A stretch of DNA of 64,000 bases, taken from positions 23,646 through 87,645 of IMG/VR virus record IMGVR_UViG_3300045988_117192; one strand, written 5' to 3'. This DNA comes from a virus. The position numbers were made by a program, and so were the translations under genes. Of this stretch, positions 241-60,886 are shown piece by piece (the stretch's first letter is position 1; every line of letters begins with the position of its first letter). The notes under the pieces are model-generated. The model did no database searches and was not told the origin of the DNA. It was given only the letters and a program-made list of their open reading frames with translations.

Positions 241-258
241 GCTCCCCCGTAGAAGAGT
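241..258 (+). repeat. GC-rich dispersed motif copy (GCTCCCCCGTAGAAGAGT), intergenic, followed by TATTATAAT
   Basis: exact core CTCCCCCGTAG at 242-252; 48 nt upstream of the ATG at 306. Confidence 0.8.
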
Positions 259-305
259 ATTATAATGCTCTAATTAAATATAATTATAAACTTAATATTA
301 ATAAT

Positions 306-992
306 ATGGCAAGTATTGCAATGTTAGTTAGTGAATTTGCTCATAGTTTAAAGCAACCTAATAATAAAGCTTTACGTCAAAACATTAAACAACTTATTAT
401 TCATACTCGTAATGAAATTATACGTAGAAGTTATGAAAATCATGGATATGTAGATAAAGGTTTAGTACAAAGATTTAAAGTTTCTCTTATTGATGTTTTA
501 GATGGTGAATTAGAAATTCCTAATGATTTAGAAGATGTAGATATTACTACAATAAAGCGAACTAAAGATAAAGTTCCAAGACCTGTAAGACTTACTAATA
601 ATCTTCCTTTTGATAGAGTTAGTAGTATAGGTTTTAAAACAAATAAAGAATTTCCATTTATTAAAGAAACTAGTGCTAGATTTAGAAGTTCAGTTCCTGG
701 TTTATGTGGCATTCCTTGTTATGATTATATAAATGGTTATATTTATATTTTTCCTACTAATAATAAACCTATAAATATTAATAATATATGTATTGAAAGT
801 GCTTTTGAACATCCTAATGAAATTCAAGAACTTAATAAAGAAGTTGATGAAATGCAATTATTTATGGATGAAAATGAATGGTTACTTAGTGAAGATATGA
901 TTGGTCAAATTAAAGATATTATTTATAAACGTGATTTACTTAGTACTGTTAGAGAAACAAATGAAATCCCAAATACTATAAAATATAATTAA
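306..992 (+). CDS. hypothetical protein (228 aa)
   Basis: ATG ORF beginning 48 nt downstream of an intergenic copy of the GC-rich motif; no recognisable catalytic motifs. Confidence 0.5.
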   Translation: MASIAMLVSEFAHSLKQPNNKALRQNIKQLIIHTRNEIIRRSYENHGYVDKGLVQRFKVSLIDVLDGELEIPNDLEDVDITTIKRTKDKVPRPVRLTNNLPFDRVSSIGFKTNKEFPFIKETSARFRSSVPGLCGIPCYDYINGYIYIFPTNNKPININNICIESAFEHPNEIQELNKEVDEMQLFMDENEWLLSEDMIGQIKDIIYKRDLLSTVRETNEIPNTIKYN

Positions 993-998
993 TAAATT

Positions 999-1961
999 AT
1001 GGCAATAAAAAATGTACCAGTAGGTGTTAGGCATTATCATAGAAGTATGCTTAATACTTTTAGTAAGAAAAGAGAAGAAGCTCTTACAAAACTTAACGAA
1101 CTTAATAAAAAAATTAAAGTTGAACATGATGAGATTAAATCTAATCTAAATGTATATAAAGACATTTGTGGTGTTAATCTTTTAGATTATGATGAATTTG
1201 TAAATAATAAATATAATAATGGTAAGTTTTTAAAACTTACTAAAGGTATGTATATAAATCGTTCTAATAATTATGAATTAGTTAGTGATTTATTTAATGT
1301 TCATACTTTAGCTATTCATCAAAAACAAATAAATGAACTTGAAAAAGAAGTAAGTTTATATGATAAATGTCTTAAACTAAAACCTAATGATTATTTTAAA
1401 ATTCTTCGTACTTTTTATACTGAAGTTCATAAACAAATGATTGTTAATGGTTATGGTTATGCTTATACTGGTCGTTTAGGTTGGATTTGTGTTAATCGTG
1501 TTGTTATTAAAGGTCATCGTAAACAAGTTCTAGATTGGCAAGCTACTAAGAAAAGAGAAGCTGAACTTAAAGCACAAGGTAAACGTATTTATAATAAAGA
1601 AGAAGCTGAATGGTGTGCTAGAAATGGTATAGAATATAAAGCTGAAGATAAACGAGTTTATATGAAACCAGAATCTTATTATGAACTTTGTTTATGTAAT
1701 TGTCAACTTCCTAATGCTACAGGTTTTGTTCCTGAATTTGTAGATTATAGAGCTGCTGGACTTAGAGGTAAAACTAATCAAGATTTAATCAACGATTGTC
1801 ATAATAATGTTGAAGAAATTACTCAACTGCCTATAGATCTTAAAACTAAAGTTATACTTTGTAATAAAGTAGATCCTATTTTATATACTAAATTTATACG
1901 TAATGAAAATCAAGCAACATACACTAAAGATAAGTCGTCTTATTGGAAAAATAGACAATGA
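999..1961 (+). CDS. hypothetical protein (320 aa)
   Basis: long ORF immediately following the previous gene; Lys/Asn-rich; no motif recognised. Confidence 0.5.
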   Translation: MAIKNVPVGVRHYHRSMLNTFSKKREEALTKLNELNKKIKVEHDEIKSNLNVYKDICGVNLLDYDEFVNNKYNNGKFLKLTKGMYINRSNNYELVSDLFNVHTLAIHQKQINELEKEVSLYDKCLKLKPNDYFKILRTFYTEVHKQMIVNGYGYAYTGRLGWICVNRVVIKGHRKQVLDWQATKKREAELKAQGKRIYNKEEAEWCARNGIEYKAEDKRVYMKPESYYELCLCNCQLPNATGFVPEFVDYRAAGLRGKTNQDLINDCHNNVEEITQLPIDLKTKVILCNKVDPILYTKFIRNENQATYTKDKSSYWKNRQ

Positions 1962-2649
1962 TTTTAATATAAGTGAATCTGATTGGATACCTAGAGTTGC
2001 AGCTTGGGTTATTGATGCTCTTTCACAAATGAAAGTTCTTCCTATGGAACGTAAACGTAGAGTACTTGAAGTTAGTGAAAGAATTGCTCAATTTCCTTGT
2101 TGTATTAATGCAGATGAAATTAAAGTTTATGATAAAAATGGTTGTGAAATATCGCAATTAGATAGTAATAGTTCTTGTGGATGTAATATTAATGATAATA
2201 ATTATAGTCCACAAGAAATTGCTGTTATTGATGATAATAATAAAAGTGGTGTAAACTTTATGAATGTTGGAACTGTTGTTAATAATAGTAATCGTAATTT
2301 TGTTCTTCAAGGTAATAATATAGAACTTAATTTTAATACTGATAAAATTATAGTTGAAACTTTAGAAGTAGCTACTTATTATGATGAATATTATGATTGC
2401 GAAGTTCCTTATATTTATGATGATGGTTTGCTTTTAGAAGCTCTTGCTTGGTATTGTTTATTTAAATATCTTAGTAGAGGTAGTAAGCATACTATTTATG
2501 ATTTAAAAAGTACTAACGCTGTAATCAATCCTTATATGCAATGGCAAGCTCTTAAAGTTAAAGCTGCTAATTCTGTTAAAATTAAACTTAATCAAGATAA
2601 AGGTTGGCGTAGTTTCTTTTATAATAGTACATTCATTCCAAGAGGTTAA
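1903..2649 (+). CDS. hypothetical protein (248 aa), probably virion-associated
   Basis: ORF overlapping the upstream gene by 59 nt in another frame; true start may be an internal ATG; lies directly upstream of the large structural genes. Confidence 0.45.
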   Translation: MKIKQHTLKISRLIGKIDNDFNISESDWIPRVAAWVIDALSQMKVLPMERKRRVLEVSERIAQFPCCINADEIKVYDKNGCEISQLDSNSSCGCNINDNNYSPQEIAVIDDNNKSGVNFMNVGTVVNNSNRNFVLQGNNIELNFNTDKIIVETLEVATYYDEYYDCEVPYIYDDGLLLEALAWYCLFKYLSRGSKHTIYDLKSTNAVINPYMQWQALKVKAANSVKIKLNQDKGWRSFFYNSTFIPRG

Positions 2650-2652
2650 ACT

Positions 2653-6729: not shown

Positions 6730-8567
6730 GATATAAATTAAAAAATGGAGGCAAAAGTCGTCCTAAAGCTTTATTTGGTGTAGATGGTGCGATTAATGCT
6801 GCTGCTACTTTAGCTGCTGCTGGTATGACAACTGCTGCTACTCTTAAAGCAGCAAATCAGCAATCTAAAGCTGTTGAATCTTCTGCTAGAACACAAGCAG
6901 AAGCTATTAAAGCTCAAACTGCTAATAATACTGATCTTCAAAAAGAAAGTATTAATTTTCAAAGACAAATAAATCAAGAAAATAGACAACAACAACAAGA
7001 TATTCAAACTACTCTTCAACTTATGGCTGGTCAACAAAATATGAATGATAGGCTTAAAGCTACTCAAGAAGTTGCTAAATATGGTGGTAGACCTAAAAGA
7101 AAAAAGTTGTCTAAGATGACTTCTGATATACCTTCCTACGGGGGAGCTAGAATACCTTTCCGTGTTACAGATGGTGGTGGAGTAATTCCAATTCAAATAA
7201 ATGATGCAGGTTATGGTTTGTATGAACTTTATGGTAATGATCATGACCATTATCACAAGACATCTGGAGGTAAATACAAATCAGGTGTTGGTATTAAATT
7301 TGCTGATGGTAGTACAATAGAAGGTGAAGGAAATCAAAATACTAAACAAGGTGAATTACTTTATGTAACACCTTATGATAATATGTTTATATCTAAACAT
7401 GATATTAAAGGTTTTAATCCTGCAGAAGCTGTTAATGAAGGTATGAATCCTCAATATGCTTTTGATATTCAACAACAACTTAAAGCTATTTATGGTATTA
7501 ATGATGATGGTAGTAAGATTGATAAATCATCTTATAAACAAATGGCTAAATGTGGAGGACATTATAAACTTAAATGTGGTGGTCGTATTAAAAGAGTTAA
7601 TGGAGGTTTTTGGCAAAATCATGCAGGAGCTACTTATAATGCTGTTGGTAATTTACTTGGTGCAGGTATTACAGCTATAGGTAATGGTATTGCTGGTCGT
7701 AAACTTTCTAATGCTTATAATAATGCTGGTAATATATTAGCTGATGCTTATTCTCAAATGCATGGAATAGATTTATCTGAAATAAGTAAAAGTGACTATA
7801 CTCCAGCTCATGTTATGGCAATTGTTAGTAATGCAGATACTAATATAAATCCTCAATTAGAACGTATTCGTAGAGATGCTGCTGCTCAAACTAAGCAAGT
7901 AAATAATTCAACTATGAGTTCTGCTGCTAGACAACAACGTCTTGCTGGAATTAATGATAGAAGTTTACAACGTGCTACTGAGCAATATGCTTATAAACAA
8001 AATGAAGATCAAAAAATTCAACAAGCTAATGCTGAACGTATTCAACAAGCTAGTGCAACAAATGCTCAACTTGATTCTCAAGCAAATCAAGAATATGCTA
8101 AATCTAGACTTGCTTTAATGCAATACAATAATGATATTGAAAATAGTAAGATTGCTGGAGCTGCACAAGCTAGAGCTGATGCTATGACACAAAGTAGTAC
8201 AGCTAGTGCTACAGCTTGGCAAAATTCTATGAATGCTATAGGTTCTGCAATAGCTAATACAGGACAAGGTTTTGCTTCATCTTATGAAGCTATTCGTAAA
8301 TCAAATGATGATTTTGCTAATACTTATGCTGGATTGGGTAATGAACAACAAGTTAAAGCTGCATTACTTCGTTATGAAAGAACTGGAGATGATAGTTATA
8401 TTAATAGTTTGTTAAATAGTAATATGATTAGTGATTCAGAAAGAGTTGCTTTAAATAGAGCTAAAGCTAATAAAATTAGAATAAAAAGAAATAAATTAAG
8501 AGCTACTCCAGGTAATATTTTACCAGATTATACAAATAATAGTAGTAATCCTAATTATTATGCTTAA
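6726..8567 (+). CDS. virion/ejection-associated protein with Gln/Ala-rich coiled-coil N-terminus and Gly-rich segment (613 aa)
   Basis: ATGA start/stop overlap with the upstream gene (translational coupling); Q/A-rich heptad-like N-terminus; Gly-rich tract NLLGAGITAIGNGIAG. Confidence 0.5.
   Translation: MRYKLKNGGKSRPKALFGVDGAINAAATLAAAGMTTAATLKAANQQSKAVESSARTQAEAIKAQTANNTDLQKESINFQRQINQENRQQQQDIQTTLQLMAGQQNMNDRLKATQEVAKYGGRPKRKKLSKMTSDIPSYGGARIPFRVTDGGGVIPIQINDAGYGLYELYGNDHDHYHKTSGGKYKSGVGIKFADGSTIEGEGNQNTKQGELLYVTPYDNMFISKHDIKGFNPAEAVNEGMNPQYAFDIQQQLKAIYGINDDGSKIDKSSYKQMAKCGGHYKLKCGGRIKRVNGGFWQNHAGATYNAVGNLLGAGITAIGNGIAGRKLSNAYNNAGNILADAYSQMHGIDLSEISKSDYTPAHVMAIVSNADTNINPQLERIRRDAAAQTKQVNNSTMSSAARQQRLAGINDRSLQRATEQYAYKQNEDQKIQQANAERIQQASATNAQLDSQANQEYAKSRLALMQYNNDIENSKIAGAAQARADAMTQSSTASATAWQNSMNAIGSAIANTGQGFASSYEAIRKSNDDFANTYAGLGNEQQVKAALLRYERTGDDSYINSLLNSNMISDSERVALNRAKANKIRIKRNKLRATPGNILPDYTNNSSNPNYYA
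7134..7150 (-). repeat. GC-rich dispersed motif copy, reverse orientation, inside ORF 6726-8567
   Basis: CTACGGGGGAG at 7136-7146; encodes SYGGAR in frame. Confidence 0.8.
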
Positions 8568-14700: not shown

Positions 14701-17700
14701 TGGTAGTAAAGGTAATGTAACTGCTTCTGAATTTTTAGATGCTTTAGATGTATTTAATTTTTCTAATAGAACTAATCAAAGTCTTTATGAATATGTTACA
14801 AATATAATTGATATGTATAAAATGAGTCGTAATCAGCAAAGAGCTGAAGACACTCTAGAAGATGAGACAAGTTCTACAGAAAATCAAGAACAGATTACAG
14901 ACACTGAAAATCAAAACTTGAATAATCCACCACAACCAAATAAAGAAAACGACACAGACCAAGCAAATGGGCAAAATCAACCTATAGCACCATCATCAGA
15001 GCAACAAGAAAACCAAAACAAAGGTAAAAAGAGTAATGTTACATTTAATATTAATAATAAAGGTAATATTGTATCTATTAAACATACTGGTAAATCCAAT
15101 TCTTCTACTGCTAAAGTTATAGATAATGGAGATGGAACATATACTCTTGATATTAGTTCTAAACCTAAAAATGCACAACTTAGATATGTTATAGGAGGCT
15201 TATTTGATGGAAGTGTTGATTTAATTGATGTAGATGCTGATTGGGTTATTAGTAAAAATCCTATAGTTAAACGTAAAGGTAATGATTATATTATAATAGA
15301 AAAAGGTAAAATTAGAACTACTAAATATAATAATATAGATGAAGAAGAATATCAATCTTTTAAGGAATTAGTTGACAGTGATGAAAATTTTAAAAATGAT
15401 TTATTAAATAATCCTGATAGTGTTAGAACTACTGTTCTAGAAGTTTTAGATACAACAGATGAAGATAAAGCTAATAGCTATATAGAACGTTATCTTGATG
15501 AAAATAAAGTTGATTCTAACTCCCCCGTAGAAGAAAGTGATGATACTTTTTTAAGTGATGGCCAAGATACTAATCAAAGTACTCAAGGTACTCAAGATAC
15601 TAATCAAGGTACTCAAGAAGGTTCTAATAATCAAACACCACAAAACTCTTCTACGGGGGAGCAAGAGTCTAACTCTAGGATAAGTCCTACTACTACTCCT
15701 GCTACAACTAATGAACCTGGAAGTACAAATACTCCTTCTACTAGTACTACTAATAATAAAACTAATGAAGATTTAGATGAGATTAGAAGAGGTATAGCTC
15801 AAACATTTGGAAAATATATTCCAGATATGAGAGTTAAAGATATAAATTTTGATGAAATTAGTAATAAAGTTGAAAAAGAACTTCTAGATATTAAAGATAG
15901 AGTTGGTTTAAGTGAAGAAGAAATTAAAGTTGAAGTAGCTAGACAAAAGCAAATGTTGAAAGATGCTCATGATAAACTTATGAGTTTACAAAGTAAACTT
16001 GCTCAAAATGGTGCTAATTTAGCTTTTGCTTCTAAACTTGAAGAAGTTGATACTACTGATTTTAGTTTAATGTTTACTAATGCTGTGGAAGCTTTTATGT
16101 CTGAATATAAAAAGATAGTAGTTACACCTACAGTTGATGGTAGACAAGTTGTTAGATTAGAAGATATTTTAAGAATTTGTAATAATGTTTATCCTACATC
16201 TGATATTAGTGTTGCTAAATCGATGTATAATGTTATTTATAATTATCTTAGAAGTCCTATTGGTCAAGCTAAATATTTAACTATTGATTTAAATAATGGT
16301 AATAAAGTATTAGATAATATTACTAAAACTACTGAACAACTTCAAAAAGAAGTTGATGAACAATATGATCCTTTTAGAGTTAATATTAATGATTTTATAG
16401 AACAGGCTTTAATAAGTAATGATGATGTTAAAGATGAATATTTTAAAGCTTTAAATTCATTGAATACAGGTGATGAACTTGATATGCTTGCAACTGATAG
16501 AGAATTAATATTTAGACATGGAAATGTTACTATAGGTAATATGCCTAAACCTAAAATTAAAGGTGATACTTTTATTCAAATAAATGAAGGTTGGATTACC
16601 GATGTTAAATTAGATAATAAAGGTGATGTTGTAAGTTCTCTTAAACCTATATTTGAAGATATATTTTTAACAGATACTAGTGCTCATAAAGCTTTAAGAG
16701 AATTATTAATAAAAAATGCTATACTTGATAGAGGAAGTGAAAATTATAAAACTGAATTTGATAGTTTAGTTAAATCTTTTAGTAATAATTTTGTTATTAA
16801 ACAATTAGTTGAACAAGCTAGAAAAGATAAAGCTAAAGGTGAACATAAAATATTTATTAATGATGCCAGTGGTATAATAGACTATGATAGATTATTAAAT
16901 CATCTTACTAAACTTTGGAATTATACTCAAGCAGGAAATAATGCAAATAGTAAAACCGAAGCTGAAGATAACATTAGAATTAGTTTAAATAGATGGTTTA
17001 ATAATTTATATAAAACTTATAATACTACTTATAATATAACTAAAGATAGTAAAGTCAAAATTACAAAATTAAATGAAGGTCAAATTAATAGAGCTGTAGA
17101 AAAAGATGATTTAAATACTGTAGAAAATTATGATAAATTACCTTTAGTTAGAGATGCTGTAGCAAAAAAATTTAAATGTAAATTAGGTATTGTTGAAACA
17201 AAAGAAACATATATTGATATAGCTGGAGATAATGCTTTTAATGTAAAAAAATGGACAGCTAATAGTACATTAATTGCTGTATTTAGTAAAAATGAATTAC
17301 CTGATTATATTAAAGCTATTGGTGTAAAATTATCTGAAGCTAAAAGTTTAGGTAATAATAGTATAGTAGGTTCTATAGCTAGAGCTTCTATGATACATTT
17401 ACAAGAAACTTTTCAAGAATATATAGATAAAAAAGGTTTTGGTGATATAAATAAAATAGAAGATGTAATAAGAAGTATTATAGCTATTGTAGGTGATGAA
17501 GATAGAATACCTTTATTTAGAGCTATTTCTGGTAAATTTTTTATAGAAGACATAAATGCTCCAAATAGTAATGCTAGAGGTATAAGTATAGTTTATAAAG
17601 GTAATAACAGAGAATTTAGACGTTTTAGAATTTATACTAATAATAAATATAATAATTCTAATTTTGGTTATAAAGATACTAAAACTAATGAAACTAGTTA

Positions 17701-22400: not shown

Positions 22401-25400
22401 GTTATTATAGTATAGAACTTAAAAAACTTCCAAATGATGAAATTTCTAAAGAACCAAAGTTCAAAGAAGGTATGTCTAATACTAAAGGTTATAAATTTTA
22501 TCATTTAGGTTCTAATGGTACTGTTTTAGAAAAAAATGGAGAAGGTTTTAAACTTGCTGGTAATGTGTTTCATAGTAATAAGTTTACTTTAGCTGTTGAA
22601 AGTGCAGATGGTACTATTAGTAAAAAAAATTATCTAGATGAAATTATAAGTAATGATTTAGATAAAAGATATGATGGTTCAATCAATCTTCTCTACGGGG
22701 GAGCTATGAGGATAGTAGCTACTCTAGAAGAAGATGGTAATTATAATGTAGAAGATGTTATTTTTAGTGATCTTCAACAAGAGAAAATAAATAAAGCTCT
22801 TTCAGATTTTCTTACAGAATATCAAAAACAAGCTATTAATAAAATAGATAGTTATAAAAACTTTATTCAAGGAGTTGATATTACTAGTGAAAATATAACA
22901 AGTTTTGCTATTAATAATCTTCTAATGCACTATAATTATGATGAATTATTTGAAGGTAATACTAAATTTTATAAAGATAGTCAAACTATTTTAAAACGTG
23001 CTAAAGAATATCAAGGTTCTGGTGTACCTTATGGTATTGCTAATTATAATATTTTTAATAATGAAGATTTATCTGATGTAACAAAACATTCATTTCTTAA
23101 TAATGGCACTATAGAAGAAACTAGTAAAGATTCTGAAGGTAAAGAAATAATTAATAAAGTTAGTATTCAAGATTTATTTAAAGGTACTTTATTTGAAGGT
23201 ACTACTCAACGATATGGTTTTAGAGGTGTTACCATTAAAAATACTCAACGTACAAATGTATCTGCTCTTGAAGAACTTGTTAAAAAACTTGTAAAAGATT
23301 CAAAAATAGATGAAGAAGCTGCTAGAGAAATTCTTTTTGGTCCTATTGTAATTAAAAATGGTAAAATAGTTAGAGATAAAGAAGGAAATCCTGTTCGTAA
23401 AGGTGGTTTTACTGAAACTAAAGTTAATGATGCTCAATCTTATATAACTGTTCAAGAATGGGTTCGTCGTATTTCAGCTCGTGGACAACTTCAACGCTAT
23501 CTTCCTTTAATAAAAAAAATAATTGAAGCTGATAAAAATCCTGATATTAAGCTTGATGCTAAGACCATTAAAGAATTTGTTCAAGTACAAAAAAATTTTT
23601 ATTATGATATGCATTATGATAAAAATTATGGTATTTATGTTCCTCGTCAAATTAAAAATGCTGAATTTGTACTTATACCTAGTCTTATAAAAGGTACACA
23701 ACTTGAATATGTGTATAATATGATGAGAGAAGGCAATATTGACCAACTTAATACTATTGAAACTAGTAAAGCAGCTAATGAAGAAGTTCTTACTATTTGG
23801 GATAATGATGCTAAAATTAAAGGTTTAGATGGTGTTGTTGATGAAGATGAAATAGCTAAAGCTACTAGTAAGTATGCTAGACAACTTGAAGAAAATGCTC
23901 AAATATATTCTTATAATAATTTATATACTCAGCAAGAAACACCTCAACATATGAATGCTGAAAATAAAGCTGGTATTCAACTTATGAAGAAATTGGTTGA
24001 TAATCTTCCTGATGATGATAGTGATCTTGGTAAACTTAAAAAAGAATATTTTAAATTATTTACTCGCAATATAGAAGAATCTTTTACTGATTTACTTGAT
24101 AATTTTGAAATTCCTTATGATGAAAATGGTAATATTGAATTAGATGATCTTAATCATATTAAAAATGTTAATCTAAAAGTTTTTTATAATAAACTTAAAG
24201 AAGAATTAATGCGTACAGGAATTGATAGTAACTTAAATGATTATGTTACTATTCCTGAAGGTTCTAGTATACCTAGTATGCCTGCTGCTCTTATGAACAA
24301 TGTTCTTACTAAGTTTGAATCTGTTGTTCAAAGTTTATTTAATAATAATATTACTAGACAAAAACTTCCAGGTTTTCATGCTGCTCAAATTACAAATGTT
24401 GGTTGGAGTCCTTTAAATGAAACTATAGAAGATGTTAGTTACAATAAAACTTTAAAATATCATCCTGAAGGTGAACCTTATATTGAAGTAATGCTTCCAG
24501 CATCATTTTTAGGAATAAACAAAAATGATGAGCATTATAAAAATATGACAAATAAAGAAATTATAGCTGAACTTGAAGCTAAAGGTTTAGATATGATTAT
24601 TGGTTATCGTATTCCTACTGAAGGCAAACAATCAGTATGTAATATGAAAGTTGTTGGTATAACTGATGATGCTTTTGGTTCTACTATTGTTGTTCCTGAT
24701 GATTGGGTTTCTCAAACAGGTTCTGACTTTGATATTGATAGTGTTTATGGTATTCAATTTGAAACTTATAAAACTAAATCTGGTGAAGTATTTCCTGTAG
24801 AATATAAGGAAGCTAAAAATAGAACTAAATATGATTGGTTTAATTATATTCTTAAATTTGCAAAAGATGATAGTTTAGATCCTAATGTTAAAAGTAAAAT
24901 AGTTGATGCTAAAAATAAAATAAAATCTGAACTTCAAACTGAATTAAATAAATTACAAAATGAAGAAAAAGAAGTTTGGAATAAATTTGATAAAAATGCT
25001 CAAAAGATTATTAAACAACGTCAAGATAAAATAACTCAAGCTATAAAAAAACAAGGTCTTGAAGGCGAAGATGCTTATCATTATAGACTTACTAAACTTA
25101 TTAGTTTTTTAAATAATACTAAAAAAACTGCTAAAAATAAAAATACTAATTTTATTAAAATAATTGATGAAACTATACCTACTATTAAAGCTATTGATGA
25201 TTTTATAATAACTCAAGAAGGTAAATATAATGAAAAAAGTAAAAAAAGAATAGATAGTATTCTTAATGAAAAACTTGATACATTTAATAATGCTGCTAAA
25301 AATGGTGGACTTCTTACATTAGATGACTATCTTAAATCTGAAAATGATTTAAAAGCTAATACTAGAAAAGCTAGAAATAATAAACTTCTTAGTATTATGA

Positions 25401-33715: not shown

Positions 33716-33730
33716 TGTAGTTTAGTAATA

Positions 33731-36080: not shown

Positions 36081-36088
36081 ACATTTAA

Positions 36089-38578: not shown

Positions 38579-38615
38579 ATAAAAAACTCGCTAAGTACTT
38601 GATACTCAACGAGTT
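38579..38615 (-). terminator. rho-independent terminator on the minus strand
   Basis: on the minus strand AACUCG-(18 nt)-CGAGUU followed by six U (plus-strand A-run 38581-38586). Confidence 0.4.
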
Positions 38616-38734: not shown

Positions 38735-38756
38735 AACTCTTCTACGGGGGAGCTAG
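38735..38756 (-). repeat. GC-rich dispersed motif copy, reverse orientation, intergenic (long form AACTCTTCTACGGGGGAGCTAG)
   Basis: core 38742-38752; followed by the CTAGAGTG...CACTCTAG inverted repeat. Confidence 0.8.
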
Positions 38757-39064: not shown

Positions 39065-40129
39065 TTAAGCAATTTTTAAATTAACAGCTGAAACTAGTGC
39101 TTTATTCATATTTCTGTTAGCTCCCCCGTAGAGAAGTGAATCAACACGTTTTTCATTTTCTAAATTAGCAACATTAGAATAAAAACCTGTAACAGCATTA
39201 TAAGCACCCCAAGCAGTACCTGCAATATCTTTTTGACCAATACCATCCATATAATATTCAAACATATTAGTAATTTGATTTATTTTACGTTGACTGATAT
39301 TAGTATGTTCCATAAGAAGATACTCACTATTAAATAATTTTTTATAACCATTTTTGTTATCATAATCAAGAAGAGCTAATCTTTCAGCTTCAGTAAGTTG
39401 TAAATCAGCAATATATTTCATTACTTCTTCATCAGACATTTTAATAGTTAGAAGACTATCATAAAGTTGTTTAGCATTATTAGCATGTTCACAAGCTATT
39501 TTTAAAATTTCACTACCACGTTCAATTTTATCTCTAGCAGATTTAGTATGTTTAATACGAATATATGAATGAGCACTATTTAAAGCACTATTTAACATAT
39601 TAGTACAAATAACTCTAATAGGAGAAAATAAAATATTTATAGAAGAACTACCATCATGAGAATTACTAAATACAAGATAATTATCTACTACATCTTTTCC
39701 TACTTTAGTAGTATAAGGTAATTTAGCACTAACAAATATTTTATGTCCATAACCAAATTTACCAGCTTTATCCCATTGAGCTTTATTAACTCCAATAGCA
39801 TCATTAAAGAAATTAAAAGCTTCAATATTTTGAATAACTTCATATTTATCTTTAACTAAACCTAAAGGTGTATTAGTATCTGTACGATAAGTAGCATAAG
39901 CTTTAGGACAATCTCTATAAATATAACCATCTTTAGCAAACTCACCACCTAATTCATTAAATTTATTATTACCGTTAATACTAAAAGGCATACGAGCAAC
40001 TAAATCACATTTATCCACATAAAAATCAAGTCCAGCTTTTTGCATAACTTCTTGAGCTGTAGTACAATCTGAAACATCTTTTCCTATACCACTAGCCCAA
40101 GGTAAACCGTTAATATTATATTTACTCAT
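39065..40129 (-). CDS. hypothetical protein (354 aa)
   Basis: long ORF; no motif I can assign with confidence; carries an antisense-oriented copy of the GC-rich motif at 39121-39131. Confidence 0.5.
   Translation of the reverse strand: MSKYNINGLPWASGIGKDVSDCTTAQEVMQKAGLDFYVDKCDLVARMPFSINGNNKFNELGGEFAKDGYIYRDCPKAYATYRTDTNTPLGLVKDKYEVIQNIEAFNFFNDAIGVNKAQWDKAGKFGYGHKIFVSAKLPYTTKVGKDVVDNYLVFSNSHDGSSSINILFSPIRVICTNMLNSALNSAHSYIRIKHTKSARDKIERGSEILKIACEHANNAKQLYDSLLTIKMSDEEVMKYIADLQLTEAERLALLDYDNKNGYKKLFNSEYLLMEHTNISQRKINQITNMFEYYMDGIGQKDIAGTAWGAYNAVTGFYSNVANLENEKRVDSLLYGGANRNMNKALVSAVNLKIA
39119..39136 (+). repeat. GC-rich dispersed motif copy inside minus-strand ORF 39065-40129 (antisense)
   Basis: core 39121-39131; on the coding strand it encodes LLYGGAN. 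Confidence 0.8.
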
Positions 40130-43958: not shown

Positions 43959-45521
43959 TTAATTAATACCAAATTTATCTTCTAGATTATAATATTTAAC
44001 AAAACTCATAAAATCATCAATCCAAATATGATGACAACCAATAATAACAACATATTCCCATTTATCAAGAAGTTTATGATTATCAGTTTGTTTTTGTCTA
44101 AATTCAATACTTCTAAGATTATATAATCCAACTTTAATATATCTATTATTAAACTCATGTTTAATCATAATACCTTCTTGAGGATTATCATTACAAGTAG
44201 TACCTTTATATAGTTTATACATCATTATAGCTTGGTCTAATGTAACACTAGCTTTATTAGATGTTTCAACTACATCATGTTTAGGATTATTTTTATTTTG
44301 TCTATATCTAAGTTGAATATTATTAAATTTAATTTTAGGATAAAGTTTATCAACCATCCAACTACCAGTACCACGTTTATAACTATCAATTACAAATTTA
44401 TTATATTTAATACAATCATCATCATGATTTCTAAAAGTAGAAAAATCTCTCCAAGCTTTCAATCGTTCTTCATAATGTTGATTATTATATTGTTCAACAG
44501 CTTTATTATAATTATCATCACTTTTACGAATATTAGCTTCTAAAGTATTTCTTGTAACATTCTCAATAACTTTAGCATAAAGTTTAATACCATCTCTCCA
44601 TTTTATTAATTCAGACCTATTATCGAGATTAATAGCAATATTATGTTTATTAAATAAAGCTTTTAATTTATCTTTATCATAATCATCATTCCAATGAGTT
44701 TCTAGTTCTTTACGGGATATACCATATCCTCTACAATATAAACCATAAAAATAACTTTGTTCAAGTTTAAGTTTTTCTTTTTTAGTAAATACAGTACCAT
44801 TTACAATTTGTTTAAGAGATGGAAACGGAACATCATAATAAGTATATTTACTCCAATTAAAATCATCTCTTATACTTATAACATTATCAAGAGGTTTATC
44901 ATACCAATCATATTGTTTTACTTTATATTTCTGAACAAAATCATAAATTTTACTATAATCAGCATATTTATACCAATTATGATAAATATAATGTTCTTTT
45001 TTATATTTAAATAAACTATTAATATCTTGATGAACTACTTTACGTTTACCTTCAAGAATACCATAAAATTCAGCTAATAATCTATCAACAAATACTTTAA
45101 TAAGATATTTAGCATGAATCTTTATAACTTCTGATAGCTCCCCCGTAGAAAGGATGTGTGGATTGGTTATAGTTTCCTCAGTAAGAAATACTTGATAATC
45201 ATCAGGAATACTACCAATAAGTTCATCACTTCTTTTAAGGAAACTAGTATTAACTAATATAGTTTTAGTATCTCGATTAATAACAGCAACACAACAATAA
45301 GCATTATAATCAAGTTTACTATTCCAACTATAAGTAATAGTATTTCTATCAGCATTTTTATTTAAACGAAACGCAAATAACCAATCATATTTACCACTTA
45401 CTATATAGTTTTGATTACTATAAACATAAGTATCATCATGTATCCAACGATGATATACTTCTTTCCTAGGAAAACAATGTTTAACACGTTTACCATTTTC
45501 TTTAAGTTCAGCACTTCCCAT
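43959..45521 (-). CDS. hypothetical protein (520 aa)
   Basis: long ORF; Tyr/Lys/Asn-rich; no motif recognised; contains an antisense GC-rich motif copy at 45138-45148. Confidence 0.5.
   Translation of the reverse strand: MGSAELKENGKRVKHCFPRKEVYHRWIHDDTYVYSNQNYIVSGKYDWLFAFRLNKNADRNTITYSWNSKLDYNAYCCVAVINRDTKTILVNTSFLKRSDELIGSIPDDYQVFLTEETITNPHILSTGELSEVIKIHAKYLIKVFVDRLLAEFYGILEGKRKVVHQDINSLFKYKKEHYIYHNWYKYADYSKIYDFVQKYKVKQYDWYDKPLDNVISIRDDFNWSKYTYYDVPFPSLKQIVNGTVFTKKEKLKLEQSYFYGLYCRGYGISRKELETHWNDDYDKDKLKALFNKHNIAINLDNRSELIKWRDGIKLYAKVIENVTRNTLEANIRKSDDNYNKAVEQYNNQHYEERLKAWRDFSTFRNHDDDCIKYNKFVIDSYKRGTGSWMVDKLYPKIKFNNIQLRYRQNKNNPKHDVVETSNKASVTLDQAIMMYKLYKGTTCNDNPQEGIMIKHEFNNRYIKVGLYNLRSIEFRQKQTDNHKLLDKWEYVVIIGCHHIWIDDFMSFVKYYNLEDKFGIN
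45136..45152 (+). repeat. GC-rich dispersed motif copy inside minus-strand ORF 43959-45521 (antisense)
   Basis: core 45138-45148; coding strand encodes STGELS. Confidence 0.8.
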
Positions 45522-45735: not shown

Positions 45736-45754
45736 CTTCTCTACGGGGGAGCTA
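45736..45754 (-). repeat. GC-rich dispersed motif copy, reverse orientation, intergenic
   Basis: CTACGGGGGAG at 45741-45751; upstream in the sense direction of minus-strand gene 43959-45521. Confidence 0.8.
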
Positions 45755-48353: not shown

Positions 48354-49500
48354 ATCTTATAGTTTCATTTATAAAATTATCAATTTGTTTATTATTAAAT
48401 TTTTCATGTAAATCAGCAAAATCTTTACATTCGTAATTAGGAAGTCCAAATTCACCACGAGTAATAAAAATATAAGGTATATTATAAGTGTCTTTTAAAT
48501 ATTTAGCACCAGTTCTACCAGTAGAATCAAAATCTAAAAGACTTATAATCATACCATCTTCTGCAAGCTTACTAGAAAGCCAATCATATTCTTTTTCTTT
48601 AAGTTTATAATTTTCACTTGGTAAATTCACAACTCCAACATTAAGTTTAGTTCTAGCTCCCCCGTAGAAGAGTGTATTGGATAAATGATTACCTATGCTA
48701 AGTCTATCTTTACTACTTTTAGTTATAAGTATATAATCATAATTATCAAGTTCTAAATTAGGAAGTCCTTCAAGAACATTACAATTAGTTACAAATTTAA
48801 GTTCAGTACTTCTATTACGAAGAGGAAAATATAATTTTATAAAATAAATACCTTTACGATTTTGTCCTAACATATAAGCATAACATGGGTCTTTAGCTTT
48901 ATAATAATATTTAGGGTCACTATTAACACCACGATCTATATAATACTGATCTACAGGTAAAACAAAATGAGTATTAAGATAACTAAGAGAAATATTCCAT
49001 TTACTCCAAATCTTCTTGTCATCTTTGTTCCAACTACGAGGTACAATTTCAATAATAGGTCTTCTTTGTTTACCTACTTCTATTGCATCTCTAATCATAT
49101 CAGTAACATTTTCATCAACTTCTTTTCCATCAATAATATCAGAAAATGTATAAGCTATATGTTTAAGAACATAATAGAAATCTTGTTTATTATTAGTTTC
49201 AATTTTTCTATTACATATCAAAGATAAGACATAAGCAACTACACCATAAACATCTTCAAAAAATCCAAATCCTCCGAAGTCACGAACTTTAAGTCTGCCT
49301 TTAGCATTATATTGAATACCCATACTTTTATTAGTGTCATTATCTCTAAATACAGATTCTATAAGATGATTATTCTTAATACAATCTTGTACAACTTCCA
49401 TAGGAATATCAAGATATTTACTAACAATAAGTTCTTGTGAAACTTTAGATTCAATATAATCCTTAGTAAGATTTGTAGTATTAGGATTACGCCTCATCAT
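48283..49500 (-). CDS. Toprim-domain protein, DnaG-type primase-like
   Basis: ISLLDFDSTGRTGAKYL matches the Toprim DxDxxG segment of DnaG-like primases; located in the replication module; carries an antisense GC-rich motif copy at 48657-48667. Confidence 0.4.
   Translation of the reverse strand: MMRRNPNTTNLTKDYIESKVSQELIVSKYLDIPMEVVQDCIKNNHLIESVFRDNDTNKSMGIQYNAKGRLKVRDFGGFGFFEDVYGVVAYVLSLICNRKIETNNKQDFYYVLKHIAYTFSDIIDGKEVDENVTDMIRDAIEVGKQRRPIIEIVPRSWNKDDKKIWSKWNISLSYLNTHFVLPVDQYYIDRGVNSDPKYYYKAKDPCYAYMLGQNRKGIYFIKLYFPLRNRSTELKFVTNCNVLEGLPNLELDNYDYILITKSSKDRLSIGNHLSNTLFYGGARTKLNVGVVNLPSENYKLKEKEYDWLSSKLAEDGMIISLLDFDSTGRTGAKYLKDTYNIPYIFITRGEFGLPNYECKDFADLHEKFNNKQIDNFINETIRYVEIRYKETLYDTDAFFQGLPYC
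48655..48673 (+). repeat. GC-rich dispersed motif copy (long form ...GTAGAAGAGTGT) inside minus-strand primase-like ORF (antisense)
   Basis: core 48657-48667; coding strand encodes LFYGGART. Confidence 0.8.
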
Positions 49501-52513: not shown

Positions 52514-53941
52514 TTAATCAACAACAATAAAATCAGAATTATCTTGTTCTATAATAACTTTTTCTTCATCATTTAACACTTTATGATTAGAAGAAAGCAT
52601 TTGACTATCTAATAACTTTTCTTCTGTTGAATTTTTACAATATATGTTATATAAATGTATGGTATTATCGTTAAACCTCAAATTATCCAAGCGATAAATA
52701 TAAGATTTTATTTCTTCACATTGAGGAGAAGTAATAATAATAATATCTACATTAACACATAAAGATTTATCTGGACTATTAGAAGTACTAAGCACCCTAA
52801 TATTGCCTTTATTAAAAGCAGCTTCATTAAATGTACGTTGTGCTTTATCAGCCATCATTTTACGTTCACCTTTATGTTTACCACTTTTATAATATAAAGG
52901 ATTTCCATTAATATCAACAGCAGGAATTGGAGATACTTTATCATGATAATTTCCACAAATAATAGTTTCAGATAAATTATTAATATAATCTGTAACTTTA
53001 CTTGCAAAATCAGCACGTTTATTTATTATAAGTATCTTCTTATTAGGATTATCATGAACAATATTATAAATAATATCTAGTTTACCATTATAGTCAGAAA
53101 GAAGATTACTTCTTTTACGAATTATTTCATAAGTATCAGAAGCTCTATCTTTTAATTTACCAGGATTATAAAGTTCATCTATTTGAACATTAAATTCCAT
53201 AGACATATCAAGATGTTCATTCCAACCATTTTCTTGAGCTATTTGAGAACAAATCTGAGCAGAACTTATATTAAAATCTTTATTACCTATTCTAGCTTGA
53301 TTCATAATTTCAAAACTACCAAATATAGCCATACTAGTAGAAACATACTCATTATAGTATTTTAGAAGTTTACCTTCTTCACTATCTTCAGGTATATTAA
53401 CACCCAAATGAATATCTTCTACGGGGGAGCTTATACGGATAGCATTTACTTCATTTTGTTTAAAATCATCTAAAATAGGACAAAGTTTATATAATAAAGC
53501 ACTATCTTCATTATTAGTTAAAAGCTTATTCATTATTACTAATTTAAACTTACTAAATTCTAATAATGTTTTAGTTGTACTATTAATAATAGTAGGATGA
53601 TAAATAATACATAAATGAGGTATTACTACATGCAAATTTTTAGATATAAAATCATTAGTAAGTACTTTAATAAATCCCTCTTTTATAAGTTTTTTAAACT
53701 CATTATTATTCTCATCTTCTCCTTTTTGATTTGTTAAAAACTCAATTATATTAGTTCGTTCATCAAAAGAGTTTACACAAATTGTTATTTTCGCCGTAGG
53801 GTTTTTATTACACACGCGCTGAAGAATACCTAAGACCATAATTTTATCGTTCAATGGTGACAAAATAAGAGCCGTTCCGACTCCTTTATTGTCTTTCCAA
53901 TGGTTTATAGCATCTTCAAAAAGTTCACCAAAAGTTTTCAT
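52514..53941 (-). CDS. hypothetical protein with possible helicase-like two-domain architecture but no Walker A (475 aa)
   Basis: alternating hydrophobic beta-strand/helix pattern and a C-terminal region resembling helicase motifs IV-V (NIRVLSTSNSPDKSLCVNVDIIIITSP) but no GxGKT; contains a sense-oriented GC-rich motif copy. Confidence 0.4.
   Translation of the reverse strand: MKTFGELFEDAINHWKDNKGVGTALILSPLNDKIMVLGILQRVCNKNPTAKITICVNSFDERTNIIEFLTNQKGEDENNNEFKKLIKEGFIKVLTNDFISKNLHVVIPHLCIIYHPTIINSTTKTLLEFSKFKLVIMNKLLTNNEDSALLYKLCPILDDFKQNEVNAIRISSPVEDIHLGVNIPEDSEEGKLLKYYNEYVSTSMAIFGSFEIMNQARIGNKDFNISSAQICSQIAQENGWNEHLDMSMEFNVQIDELYNPGKLKDRASDTYEIIRKRSNLLSDYNGKLDIIYNIVHDNPNKKILIINKRADFASKVTDYINNLSETIICGNYHDKVSPIPAVDINGNPLYYKSGKHKGERKMMADKAQRTFNEAAFNKGNIRVLSTSNSPDKSLCVNVDIIIITSPQCEEIKSYIYRLDNLRFNDNTIHLYNIYCKNSTEEKLLDSQMLSSNHKVLNDEEKVIIEQDNSDFIVVD
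53414..53431 (-). repeat. GC-rich dispersed motif copy, reverse orientation, inside minus-strand ORF 52514-53941 (sense)
   Basis: core 53419-53429; coding strand encodes ISSPVED. Confidence 0.8.
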
Positions 53942-56451: not shown

Positions 56452-57000
56452 TTAAATATTAAGAATTTTATAATTAGTAAAATCATTATTTTTAATACTA
56501 TTATACCATCTAATAAGATTATTTTTAAATATTTCATACTTATCAGAATCAGTATAATTTATAAGAGGTGAATAATTAACCCAATATCGTCTATTATTTA
56601 CAGATATAAAAATAGTATCAAAATAATCACTTATATTACAATTTAGAAATCTTCTACCAGCACTTCCAAGTAACATAATGTTTTTAAATTGATACTTTTT
56701 CATATCTTCAATAAGATAACCAATACATTTAAGATAACTATCTTCATTTAGTTCACAAGAAATATATTCATTACATCTAATTAAAGGAAGAACATATAAG
56801 TCATCTAGCTCCCCCGTAGAAGATATGAGTGATTTTATAATTTCAACTTGTTTACTAAATTTCATACCTCCTTTTTTATAAGCATTATAATCTACATTAG
56901 GAACAATAATACAATTACCGAAATAAGGATTACCAATTCCTTGTAAATTATAATGCTTATTATTAAAAAGACGTATTACACAATCTTCGCAATAGTTCAT
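56452..57000 (-). CDS. uracil-DNA glycosylase-like protein (family 4-like, divergent)
   Basis: N-terminal CEDC plus further Cys (Fe-S cluster-like spacing), VNYSPLIN resembling the HPSPLN motif B; motif A GE(A/G)PG not recognisable. Confidence 0.35.
   Translation of the reverse strand: MNYCEDCVIRLFNNKHYNLQGIGNPYFGNCIIVPNVDYNAYKKGGMKFSKQVEIIKSLISSTGELDDLYVLPLIRCNEYISCELNEDSYLKCIGYLIEDMKKYQFKNIMLLGSAGRRFLNCNISDYFDTIFISVNNRRYWVNYSPLINYTDSDKYEIFKNNLIRWYNSIKNNDFTNYKILNI
56807..56824 (+). repeat. GC-rich dispersed motif copy inside minus-strand UDG-like ORF (antisense)
   Basis: core 56809-56819; coding strand encodes SSTGELD. Confidence 0.8.
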
Positions 57001-59807: not shown

Positions 59808-59855
59808 AAGTAAACATTATGAATAATACTTATCAAATTATGGGATTAACCATAG

Positions 59856-59939
59856 TACCTAGAATGGGACTCGAACCCACACAAGCTAAAGCTCAACAGA
59901 TTTTAAGTCTGTCGTGTCTACCTATTCCACCATCTAGGT
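59856..59939 (-). tRNA. tRNA-Leu(TAA), class II with long variable arm
   Basis: hand-folded from the reverse complement: acceptor ACCTAGA/TCTAGGT, D-stem GTG/CAC with 11-nt loop, anticodon stem ACAGA/TCTGT with loop CTTAAAA (anticodon TAA), 15-nt variable arm with GAGC/GCTT stem, T-stem GTGGG/CCCAT with TTCGAGT loop. Confidence 0.6.
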
Positions 59940-60223
59940 ATCATCTTCAATCATAAAAGTTATATAATATATTTATTTATGATTTCAGAGAGTTTATTTT
60001 TTTAGTTGATGAAGTTATAAACTAAACTATTATAAGCTATCATACTTAAAACAAATGGCCAAATCTGACTTATTTAGTAATACTTACGGATTTTATATTC
60101 CTGCATCAATATATCGACTATCCAAACAATCAGCACTACAACAATAAATATCAGCATCATAACTTTCAAGATAATCTCTAACATCTTTATCAGACATTGT
60201 TTTAACCATTTCATCTAAATTAT

Positions 60224-60595
60224 TCATAATAATATAAGCATTGAAATTAAAACTGCTATAGTAATACAAGTATTAATACAAGTATTAATAATAGATAAAC
60301 GTTTAAAGTTTTTACATTTATTTATAATTTCAAAATAATTACTTGCATATTCATCACAACAATCTTTAAAATCATTTATTTGTTTATTAAGATTAGCAAT
60401 ATTAATATCTTTATCTTTAATTACTTTTATTAAATCTTGTATTTTATCATAATAATTTTTATTGATATCATCAAATGCTTTTATTTGAGAACGTAAATCT
60501 TCATTATTTTTTTTAAGTTTTTTATAAATATCATCTTTACGTATTATAATATCAACTAATTTTCTTTTATCTTTATTTATTAAAGCATTAGACAT
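60224..60595 (-). CDS. coiled-coil protein with C-terminal transmembrane anchor (123 aa)
   Basis: Lys/Asp-rich heptad-like sequence ending in ITIAVLISMLILL. Confidence 0.45.
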   Translation of the reverse strand: MSNALINKDKRKLVDIIIRKDDIYKKLKKNNEDLRSQIKAFDDINKNYYDKIQDLIKVIKDKDINIANLNKQINDFKDCCDEYASNYFEIINKCKNFKRLSIINTCINTCITIAVLISMLILL

Positions 60596-60811
60596 AATAT
60601 TAAAAGTTTTAATGGTTATAGTATTTTATTCAAATTCAAAGTTATCTCCAAAATCATCATCTGATTCTTCCATTATTTCACCATAAAGGTCATAATCATC
60701 AAAATCAGAACTTATACAATCAGAATCAACTTGAACTTTATAAGCATCAAAATCATCTTCCATAAATATAATAATTATGTTATTAGTAAATTTGATGCAA
60801 ATATAATCATT

Positions 60812-60828
60812 TCTTCTAAGGGGGAGCT
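60812..60828 (-). repeat. degenerate GC-rich motif copy (CTAAGGGGGAGCTAT), reverse orientation, intergenic
   Basis: one substitution relative to the core; forms a divergent pair with the copy at 60868-60886. Confidence 0.6.
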
Positions 60829-60867
60829 ATAATACCACTATTTTAAGTAATAATAATAGTTGCATTA

Positions 60868-60886
60868 TAACTCCCCCGTAGAAGAA
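60868..60886 (+). repeat. GC-rich dispersed motif copy, intergenic (AACTCCCCCGTAGAAGAAAG)
   Basis: core 60870-60880; about 40 nt from the degenerate inverted copy. Confidence 0.8.

Follow-up and report, generated by a model that had tools for sequence, protein, structure and literature searches.

A 64,000-nucleotide stretch of viral DNA (positions 23,646 to 87,645 of IMG/VR record IMGVR_UViG_3300045988_117192; here called the window) belongs to a lytic phage of the Intestiviridae (Crassvirales) and carries 16 dispersed copies of an asymmetric, GC-rich word with the core CTCCCCCGTAG. The word is conserved as DNA and not as peptide, recurs in a lineage-specific dialect in all eight Intestiviridae genomes examined (the window included), is evenly spaced when each strand is taken separately, and is almost always inverted where neighboring copies lie close together. 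Taken together, these properties make the word almost certainly a signal and call for a sequence-specific reader, probably phage encoded, that would act directionally, strand by strand, and would be indifferent to genes. Our favored reading, to which we assign a probability of roughly 0.3, is that the motif is the recognition site of a phage enzyme for strand-specific nicking or for starting DNA synthesis, like the nick motifs of T5, tf, and phiKMV but present on both strands.

Copies of the motif in the window

The initial annotation had counted 15 exact copies of CTCCCCCGTAG and one single-substitution copy, nine on the plus strand and seven on the minus strand. A recount agreed, with the single-mismatch copy (CTCCCCCTTAG) located at 60816. 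The chance level was taken from 100 dinucleotide-preserving shuffles of the window, which yielded a mean of 0.02 and a maximum of 1 occurrence compared with the 16 real copies, and the strong nonrandomness claimed earlier was thereby upheld. The cores start at positions 242, 7136, 15520, 15651, 22693, 26281, 33732, 38742, 39121, 45138, 45741, 48657, 53419, 56809, 60816, and 60871. Thirteen of these coordinates had been given correctly, while three needed correction (15651 and not 15647, 60816 and not 60814, and 60871 and not 60870), the earlier numbers lying near the starts of the extended motif.

Aligning 91 distinct copies, taken from the window and from its relatives, gave the extent of conservation. 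The conserved block spans positions −3 to +18 (approximately) with respect to the core, beyond the 18-mer first described, and the full element is approximately TAG-CTCCCCCGTAG-AAGAG-nTK, of 20-26 bp, with an information content of about 38-43 bits (∼42 bits in the window). The flanks of the copies have nothing in common beyond ∼22 bp. The earlier statement on runs of five or more G or C, all of which were said to fall within the motif, is right for homopolymers, since each of the 16 C5/G5 runs in the 64 kb lies inside a copy, but not for mixed runs, as eight other G/C 5-mers (e.g., GCGGC) lie outside it.

Ten copies are in long open reading frames (ORFs) and six are intergenic. Three of the ten are in the sense orientation (the SSPVE reading, with NSPVE at 15520) and seven are antisense (four read as [LFS]YGGA and three as STGE[LQ]), and both the number of intragenic copies and their peptides match the initial annotation, which had listed YGGA, SPVE, and TGE(L). 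The copies and the features associated with them are as follows (RNAP, RNA polymerase; UDG, uracil-DNA glycosylase).

239..257, plus strand: motif copy TAG-CTCCCCCGTAG-AAGAG; intergenic, 54 nt 5' of ORF 306-992, in the same orientation
7131..7149, minus strand: motif copy; antisense in ORF 6726-8567 (SYGGA); orthologous site in cr271_1 and ctcc615
15517..15535, plus strand: motif copy; sense in the 2547-aa ORF 11720-19363 (NSPVE); convergent pair with 15651
15646..15664, minus strand: motif copy; antisense in ORF 11720-19363 (STGEQ)
19430-33715, plus strand: giant RNAP ORF, 4761 aa, assigned with the annotations of relatives
22688..22706, minus strand: motif copy; antisense in the giant RNAP ORF (LYGGA); orthologous in cr271_1, ctcc615, and cr8_1
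26278..26296, plus strand: motif copy; sense in the giant RNAP ORF (SSPVE); orthologous in cr271_1, ctcc615, and cr8_1
33729..33747, plus strand: motif copy; 17 nt past the giant RNAP stop; its 3' half is the 5' arm of hairpin 33739..33774
33739..33774, plus strand: conserved hairpin GTAGAAGAGTTG...CAACTCTTCTAC; −19.7 kcal/mol, z −8.5; starts at the G of GTAG
37931..38515, minus strand: winged-helix (MarR-like) protein gene; below Pfam cutoffs; positional counterpart of the p-crAssphage RepL-like gp43
38585..38615, minus strand: intrinsic-terminator-like hairpin with T-run, ∼125 nt downstream of motif copy 38742
38737..38755, minus strand: motif copy; intergenic; stop of ORF 38813-39061 61 nt behind, winged-helix gene 227 nt ahead
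39118..39136, plus strand: motif copy; antisense in the DUF932 gene 39065-40129 (LYGGA)
45135..45153, plus strand: motif copy; antisense in ORF 43959-45521 (STGEL); specific to the window lineage among the genomes compared
45736..45754, minus strand: motif copy; intergenic; stop of ORF 45804-46154 53 nt behind, ORF 43959-45521 220 nt ahead, both in the orientation of the copy
48654..48672, plus strand: motif copy; antisense in the DnaG-type primase gene 48283-49500 (FYGGA); orthologous in 7/7 other Intestiviridae genomes
53414..53432, minus strand: motif copy; sense in the SNF2-type ATPase gene 52514-53941 (SSPVE); orthologous in 7/7 other genomes
56806..56824, plus strand: motif copy; antisense in the UDG-like gene 56452-57000 (STGEL); orthologous within Obtuvirinae
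60811..60829, minus strand: degenerate motif copy (CTCCCCCTTAG); intergenic, left member of a divergent inverted pair
60868..60886, plus strand: motif copy; intergenic, right member of the divergent inverted pair
60810..60887, no strand assigned: 78-nt imperfect palindrome (the two inverted copies plus a self-complementary spacer); −33.7 kcal/mol, z −8.1

Single copies show no self-complementarity, in contrast to intrinsic terminators and REP-like repeats, in which each copy forms a hairpin and is intergenic. A scan of the window against Rfam at the gathering score returned three tRNA matches only, none at a motif copy, and no known RNA family or tRNA coincided with any motif site. When the regions around the three intergenic copies that lie ∼220 nt 5' of the next gene were aligned, they were alike only in the motif.

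Conservation, dialects, and spacing in the Intestiviridae

The proposal of the initial annotation that the nucleotide sequence, and not a peptide, is conserved and that coding sequence accommodates the motif is strongly supported by codon-level alignments, rare-codon use, and the covariation of dialects in the eight genomes. Conservation was seen in the orthologous genes of relatives, where the annotation had suggested looking for it: the sites in the primase and SNF2 genes are present in 8/8 genomes. At the primase site, the DNA word is kept while its reading frame differs by lineage. It is read (L/F)YGG in five genomes (the window, cr271_1, ctcc615 [YRG there], cr8_1, and p-crAssphage), lies one base out of register in cr110_1 (L-R-G-V), and is read L-R-G or L-Q-G in crAss002 and jaberico; the same position in the motif-less outgroup cr127_1 is an AT-rich NIKNI. 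At the SNF2 site, the peptide tracks the dialect (PVE(E/D), PVK, or PIK). These two sites are family-wide, several others are subfamily-wide, and some are lineage specific. The codons that the motif imposes are rare ones: in the window genes, 1.8% of Pro codons are CCC and 1.4% of Gly codons are GGG, and 7 of the 14 GGG codons belong to the motif, in the seven antisense copies. Explanations by chance, by compositional bias, or by a conserved peptide are rejected: the recurrence of YGGA, SPVE, and STGE is all that speaks for a peptide, while the same DNA is read in three frames (in different frames even at one orthologous site), six copies are intergenic, the rarest codons are used, and the shuffles gave 0.02 copies against 16.

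How sites arise can be seen in the DUF932 gene. The window and ctcc615 have CTC TAC GGG GGA GCT at the site, whereas orthologues 72-77% identical have CTT TGG GGT GGT GCA (cr271_1) or GTT TGG GGT TCA GCA (cr8_1), indicating that sites are gained and lost by point substitution at compatible peptides and not by insertion. A miniature mobile or recombination-spread repeat, which the initial annotation had entertained and which the many near-identical copies dispersed on both strands might bring to mind, is rejected, because no residues are added relative to motif-less homologues, no target duplications are found, positions are orthologous across subfamilies, and the DUF932 copy differs from its motif-less orthologues by point substitutions only. 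For a recombination hotspot or mosaic boundary, a divergence profile was drawn against the contig IMGVR_UViG_3300045988_099931, which is 92-96% identical to the window over most aligned stretches; it showed no step changes at the sites, on few data.

The dialects of the other seven genomes are listed below. Sites were called by simple dialect-specific patterns, and the counts may miss or include a few degenerate copies.

cr271_1: 17 sites; word identical to that of the window
ctcc615 (mouse): 19-21 sites; [tAG/gAC]CTCCCCCGTAGAARG
cr8_1 (human): 26 sites; CTCTAGCC[CG]CCCCGTAAAAGGTATG
cr110_1: 32 sites; GAGACCCCCCGTAGAGGA
p-crAssphage (Carjivirus communis): 31 sites, 18 on the plus and 13 on the minus strand; (G/T)AC[CT]CCCCGT[AG]GAGGATGGA
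jaberico: 26 sites; ttgatGTAAACTCCCCTGTA[AG]AGGAG
crAss002: 28 sites; TTCCCCC[AG]TA[AG]AGGAG, also written TTCCCCC[AG]TAAAGGAG

The last four belong to Intestiviridae subfamilies other than that of the window (Obtuvirinae). In 8/8 genomes the motif occurs on both strands, at a steady density of ∼1 site per 3-5.5 kb. Among IMG/VR sequences, the 18-mer of the window was found in 34 stretches, mostly from ∼90-kb contigs, and the p-crAssphage dialect was found in at least 120. Nothing comparable was found in the Steigviridae (crAss001 and cr108_1) and Suoliviridae (cr273_1) genomes, and the motif is absent from cr127_1 (Crevaviridae), which has a different, purely intergenic ∼45-bp repeat instead. 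This repeat (...TTCGGAACACCTCTCGCCCTTGTGGCCATTA...) occurs six times in 40 kb, with copies on each strand and apparently none within a gene (1769, 11354, 11912, 19699, 28698, and 28869), and may be a regulatory counterpart in that family. In crAss001, CTCCAGAAGG is enriched (12 copies, e.g., at 13791, 21242, and 37941, compared with ∼0.06 expected from base composition); it lacks conserved flanks and was rejected as an analogue, its enrichment probably being an effect of coding (A/S-P-E-G) and codon usage.

In 596 Gb of bacterial and archaeal genomes the 18-mer occurred three times. This near absence indicates that the element belongs to the phage and rules out a host-derived signal. One of the three matches is an exact 18-mer in JAFRAK010000011.1, a 93,767-bp sequence, as long as a crAss-like genome, in a "Bacilli bacterium" metagenome-assembled genome from goat duodenum; the sequence is probably a misbinned Intestiviridae phage and not evidence of a host. 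The phages jaberico (host B. cellulosilyticus) and crAss002 (host B. xylanisolvens) both infect Bacteroides and nevertheless use different dialects, which suggests that the reader is most likely phage encoded and not a host factor. As a check for RNA-guided recognition, a transition-only (wobble) pattern was sought at variant positions and was not found; the ratio was 19:6 in the window and ∼1.2-1.5:1 in other genomes.

Orientation was then related to spacing. About two-thirds of copies are intragenic, with a sense-to-antisense ratio of 17:33 in four genomes. This ratio can be attributed to codability, because one sense frame contains TAG/TAA and SPVE is the only sense reading used, while both YGGA and STGE are used in antisense. 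Of 30 neighboring pairs less than 1 kb apart, 29 are inverted and 1 is in tandem, compared with 82 inverted and 38 tandem among neighbors more than 1 kb apart; close pairs are convergent in 12 cases (32-130 bp apart) and divergent in 4. Copies on one strand keep their distance (at least ∼2 kb in p-crAssphage) and are evenly spaced at ∼5-8 kb, with a coefficient of variation (CV) of the gaps of 0.29-0.51, compared with ∼0.9 for random placement. To separate strand from position, positions were held fixed and strand labels were shuffled, with the smaller of the two strand CVs as the statistic. The resulting P values were 0.0001-0.0105 in 6/7 complete genomes and 0.078 in cr271_1, and the regularity is thus strand specific and not merely positional; the genomes share ancestry and are not phylogenetically independent in these comparisons. 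The minus-strand copies of the window (7136, 15651, 22693, one missing, 38742, 45741, 53419, and 60816) are ∼7.7 kb apart (CV 0.36, P = 0.018). In 7/8 genomes, with cr8_1 as the exception, the more regular strand set is oriented like the replication (early) genes, and opposite to the structural ones, all along the genome. For strict alternation of orientation, most genomes gave significance and cr110_1 did not (18/32), and strand-wise even spacing is therefore treated as the primary property.

Some of the intergenic copies, though only some, are embedded in hairpins. Inverted pairs fold into hairpins of −26 to −34 kcal/mol with A and T runs alongside, often terminator-like, as at p-crAssphage 22899/22931, cr8_1 41889/41929, and 60810-60887 of the window. 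A copy lies 7-21 nt past the giant RNAP gene in 4/4 Obtuvirinae genomes and in three of them is fused to a hairpin (window, −19.7 kcal/mol; relatives cr271_1/ctcc615, −21.3 and −20.9 kcal/mol; z −7 to −8.7), the 3' arm of which covaries with the dialect (CTCTTCTAC versus CCTTTCTAC). Unpaired intergenic copies often lie 7-64 nt past stop codons.

Candidate functions of the motif

In the favored reading, a sequence-specific enzyme encoded by the phage would act on one DNA strand, with its orientation set by the asymmetric sequence, and would handle the genome as DNA, regardless of gene boundaries. Each copy would mark either a strand-specific interruption (a nick of the kind seen in T5, phiKMV, and tf-like phages) or the place where a G-rich primer is made on the C-run. 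Regularly spaced 3' ends would result on each strand, every ∼5-8 kb, and the PolB, ligase, and recombination machinery of the phage could extend, seal, or recombine from them. Were the specificity of the enzyme to drift in a lineage, all 17-32 sites would follow, which could produce the dialects. Intergenic copies, single or in inverted pairs, often form part of terminator-like hairpin stems, in which a word rich in GC may be tolerated by a genome of 25-30% GC.

Nick motifs have been described for several phage groups: R/GCGC in T5, CGACxxxxxCCTA/CTCCGG (19 bp) in phiKMV-like phages, and TACT/RTGMC in tf/LUZ24-like phages and Rembedalsseter, with 9-14 per 45 kb in the tf/LUZ24-like group. They are found in and outside genes, at similar positions in relatives, and coevolve with the presumed nickase, and their role is enigmatic. 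The Intestiviridae motif resembles them in being dispersed, specific to a phage group, present at ∼1 per 3-5 kb, and blind to genes, with positions kept and a variant that coevolves with the lineage. It differs in length (20-26 bp compared with 7-19 bp) and in its common close inverted pairs. The nick reading is ranked first because, among the known systems compared, only nick motifs share gene-blind placement, conserved positions, and coevolution of motif and enzyme. An ATP-dependent DNA ligase and a polynucleotide 3'-phosphatase encoded in the window, together with a conserved late-region PD-(D/E)XK nuclease in relatives, also favor it. The initial annotation had named a nickase site among its candidates, and this is still the best single guess.

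Several points weigh against it. Every described nicked phage has its motif on one strand, whereas here both are used (9 plus and 7 minus in the window), and known nick motifs cluster in one genome half, whereas these are evenly spaced. With inverted copies 32-130 bp apart, efficient nicking of both would come close to a double-strand break. No conserved nickase emerged from Pfam and PHROGs scans of 25 window proteins, and HNH and GIY-YIG genes are sporadic in the family, with none found in the window. As for priming, sequence-specific primases are known to read only ∼3 nt. Finally, of the 19 unpaired intergenic copies in the four Obtuvirinae genomes, 16 share the orientation of the genes on either side, and such copies tend to be found nearer the stop codon upstream (many of the 19 are orthologous, leaving few independent cases), and the post-RNAP hairpin (∼−20 kcal/mol) begins at the G of GTAG in three genomes. 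Both of these are hints that point to transcription rather than DNA processing.

Known priming signals (the G4-type complementary-strand origin, RSF1010 ssiA/ssiB, and the rolling-circle single-strand origin sso) are strand- and orientation-specific primer starts. Like ssiA/ssiB, which lie on opposite strands as an inverted pair, the motif lies on both strands; unlike these signals, which are structured, 40-100 nt long, and present once or twice per replicon at the origin, it consists of ∼30 unstructured 20-mers spread across genes.

Among the rival readings, those based on transcription deserve to be taken seriously. One is a promoter-like start signal for the giant virion RNAP, or for the primase acting as an RNAP on single-stranded DNA, forming a relay along each strand and not serving genes one by one. 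Transcripts would reel the genome into the cell in the manner of T7 and N4 and/or prime DNA synthesis, and some intergenic copies would drive genes. The architecture fits: a ∼10-bp specificity block is followed by a TA step and a purine-rich stretch (GTAG-AAGAG, GTAG-AGGA, or GTAA-AAGG), and promoters of single-polypeptide RNAPs, such as SP6 ...CACTATAGAAGAG, have similar architecture, length, and information content. As expected of a promoter, an asymmetric ∼20-bp word with a purine-rich end occurs together with a cognate giant RNAP ORF, and the dialects coevolve in the manner of T7-group promoters. A 5'-terminal stem-loop would account for the hairpin that starts at GTAG in three genomes, the co-orientation of 16/19 unpaired intergenic copies with genes is as a promoter would have it, and the early-gene direction of the most regular strand set in 7/8 genomes is what transcription-driven entry needs. 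The two-barrel RNAPs of P23-45 use conserved promoter motifs. Against this, placement in the window is not mostly intergenic and gene co-oriented, 10/16 copies being intragenic and 7 of these antisense. The signals of T7/SP6 and P23-45 are intergenic or co-oriented with genes and follow operons, whereas intragenic, antisense, and convergent copies are frequent here. About two-thirds of intragenic copies are antisense, the second strand set would imply genome-wide symmetric transcription, the excess of convergent over divergent close pairs (12 to 4) makes no sense for promoters, and a transcript from copy 38742 would meet a canonical terminator after ∼125 nt. Early transcripts of phi14:2, made by a homologous RNAP, shared no motif upstream, and the enzyme made no use of double-stranded DNA in vitro (Drobysheva et al., preprint). 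Other Crassvirales families with the same RNAP lack the motif. A promoter relay seems doubtful, and the antisense and convergent copies speak against the simple gene-expression promoter listed in the initial annotation.

A "self" tag for a translocating phage machine is unlikely. Such a tag might be Chi-like, attenuating a phage helicase-nuclease by which untagged DNA would be destroyed, or might mark DNA for packaging or replication in the way of DNA uptake sequences (DUS, Neisseriaceae) and uptake signal sequences (USS, Pasteurellaceae). DUS and USS have 10- to 12-bp cores in longer contexts, occur on both strands at fairly even spacing, and encode recurrent peptides; their intergenic inverted pairs form terminators, and their dialects match the cognate receptor. 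The motif comes close to them in its overrepresentation on both strands, fixed peptides in the frames to which it is fitted, terminator-like intergenic inverted pairs, and lineage dialects, and it is absent from hosts. Even spacing per orientation is what a directional reader needs. Genes for a RecD-like SF1 helicase, an SNF2 translocase, and a Gam-like inhibitor are present in the phage, and relatives encode the PD-(D/E)XK nuclease. DUS and USS differ in serving bacterial competence, with thousands of copies, a pilus protein as reader, and irrelevant orientation, compared with ∼30 copies and per-strand regularity in a lytic phage. Chi (RecBCD/AddAB), KOPS, and Ter are, like the motif, orientation-dependent words within genes, and even directional coverage would be useful to a translocating reader. 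These words are 5-8 nt long (Ter, ∼23 nt), host encoded, and abundant in hosts, unlike an element of ∼20 bp or more and ∼40 bits that is absent from bacterial genomes. Chi sites, of 5-8 nt, are read by host enzymes, and we know of no phage-encoded Chi system; the tag would thus be without phage precedent, and no small terminase or receptor is linked to the motif.

Also unlikely is a role in the polar, sequence-specific termination or pausing of the virion RNAP, or as a protein roadblock to this enzyme. Such a signal would limit read-through and antisense transcription, and at intergenic copies it would be combined with ordinary hairpins that stop the host RNAP. A precedent exists in the two-barrel virion RNAP of P23-45, for which seven terminators share a 26-nt conserved motif, alongside conserved promoter motifs. 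The unpaired intergenic copies, co-oriented and often 7-64 nt past stop codons, the hairpin-fused copy that always follows the giant RNAP gene, the inverted pairs forming hairpins of −26 to −34 kcal/mol between A and T runs, and the mostly antisense orientation of intragenic copies would all suit a terminator. However, 17/50 intragenic copies are sense, including sites inside the 14-kb RNAP gene, and a sense site ∼500 nt into the early SNF2 gene is kept in 8/8 genomes. Codability alone accounts for the sense-to-antisense ratio, and terminators follow operon ends, so that strand-wise even spacing is not expected of them. The ordinary terminator ∼125 nt past copy 38742 indicates that the motif is not itself that terminator.

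Quite unlikely, lastly, is a binding site for a phage DNA-binding protein, e.g., a RepL-like winged-helix replication initiator or architectural factor with iteron-like sites. The winged-helix gene 37931-38515 is weakly similar to that of p-crAssphage RepL-like gp43, and a motif copy or inverted pair lies upstream of the winged-helix gene in every lineage, as an association only. A convergent pair precedes both RepL-like genes of p-crAssphage, and the site has two parts (TAG-N8-TAG in the window and GTAAA-N7-GTAAA in jaberico). The Pfam support for the winged helix is below curated cutoffs, however, and in the window a terminator stands between motif and gene. Iterons cluster in tandem, as ∼20-bp units, at an origin by a rep gene and are not found every 3-5 kb inside genes, whereas neighbors less than 1 kb apart here number 1 tandem against 29 inverted; simple binding also leaves strand-wise spacing unexplained. 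We regard the winged-helix protein as a weak candidate for a motif-binding factor.

Two observations concern this gene and its counterparts. A Bacteroidetes-type promoter-like sequence (TTTG ... TAnnTTTG) at 38520-38560 on the minus strand, between terminator 38585-38615 and the winged-helix gene, suggests that the gene may be a separate host-RNAP transcription unit. In p-crAssphage, the RepL-like genes (28718-29272 and 96138-96794) bracket the replication module, and the convergent motif pairs before them are at 28075+/28176- and 95743+/95868-.

Genome context and meaning for the family

The window has a GC content of 24-32%, and its GC skew changes sign at ∼36 kb, where a plus-strand gene block meets a minus-strand block. 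The plus-strand block holds tail, cargo, and giant-protein genes, including the 4761-aa ORF. The minus-strand block holds the replication genes: dUTPase, dCMP deaminase, ThyX, the Gam-like protein, DUF932, polynucleotide 3'-phosphatase, the ATP-dependent DNA ligase, the DnaG-type primase, the SNF2-like ATPase, PolB, UDG, and the RecD-like SF1 helicase. Among database records, the uncultured crAss-like phage cr271_1 (Intestiviridae, Obtuvirinae) comes nearest, with 74% nucleotide identity over conserved parts. A search for loci related to the window UDG protein found one close relative only.

Other differences from relatives were noted. In the PolB gene (53938-56268), the 95-96% identical relative IMGVR_UViG_3300045988_099931 has ∼1.1 kb of extra sequence at ∼55005, and the cr271_1 polymerase is annotated as two coding sequences with ∼390 bp between them; both look like intron or homing-endonuclease insertions. 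The region 62240-63560 (∼1.3 kb, around ORF 62383-63291, PHROG 11581) is essentially unalignable with IMGVR_UViG_3300045988_099931, in surroundings that are 86-96% identical, as if an early gene had been replaced or were hypervariable. Four tRNA genes (Asn, Gln, Leu-taa, and Cys-aca, the last by ARAGORN alone) lie in the two largest intergenic regions, at 59549-59626 (minus strand), 59855-59939 (minus strand), and 36009-36160 (plus strand); in relatives, tRNA-Gln is close to the end of the RNAP gene.

In open-access papers and preprints, the scope of the search, no description of the motif was found either by sequence (the core, its reverse complement, and four dialects) or by keyword, in agreement with the initial annotation, which had not recognized it as a described element. 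That annotation had not included the distribution across the family, the dialects, the even spacing by strand, or the tendency of intergenic copies to form inverted pairs and hairpins. To our knowledge, the Intestiviridae have had no cis-signal defined so far, and the one crAss-like virion RNAP that has been studied showed no promoter motif. We tentatively propose, at less than even confidence, that the motif may constitute a genome-wide "relay" code of the Intestiviridae, in which an oriented 20-26-bp word, repeated every 5-8 kb per strand at the expense of protein sequence, would be read by a family-specific machine (the giant virion RNAP, the DnaG-type primase, or a nuclease) to internalize, replicate, or protect the genome. 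This would make it a new class of cis-element and not a variant of nick sites, promoters, or Chi.

The crAss-like phages dominate the human gut virome, and p-crAssphage ranks first in abundance among human gut viruses. The ∼30 precisely predictable sites per genome, present also in the cultured phages crAss002 and jaberico, offer an experimental handle, and the dialects provide both a sequence marker for lineage assignment and, through coevolution analysis, a route to the reader protein. The motif illustrates that a DNA signal can dictate which amino acids essential genes encode, and even in which frame they are read, throughout a virus family. If regular nicks on both strands, or a transcription or priming relay, prove to be its basis, it would represent a new genome-handling strategy for tailed phages.

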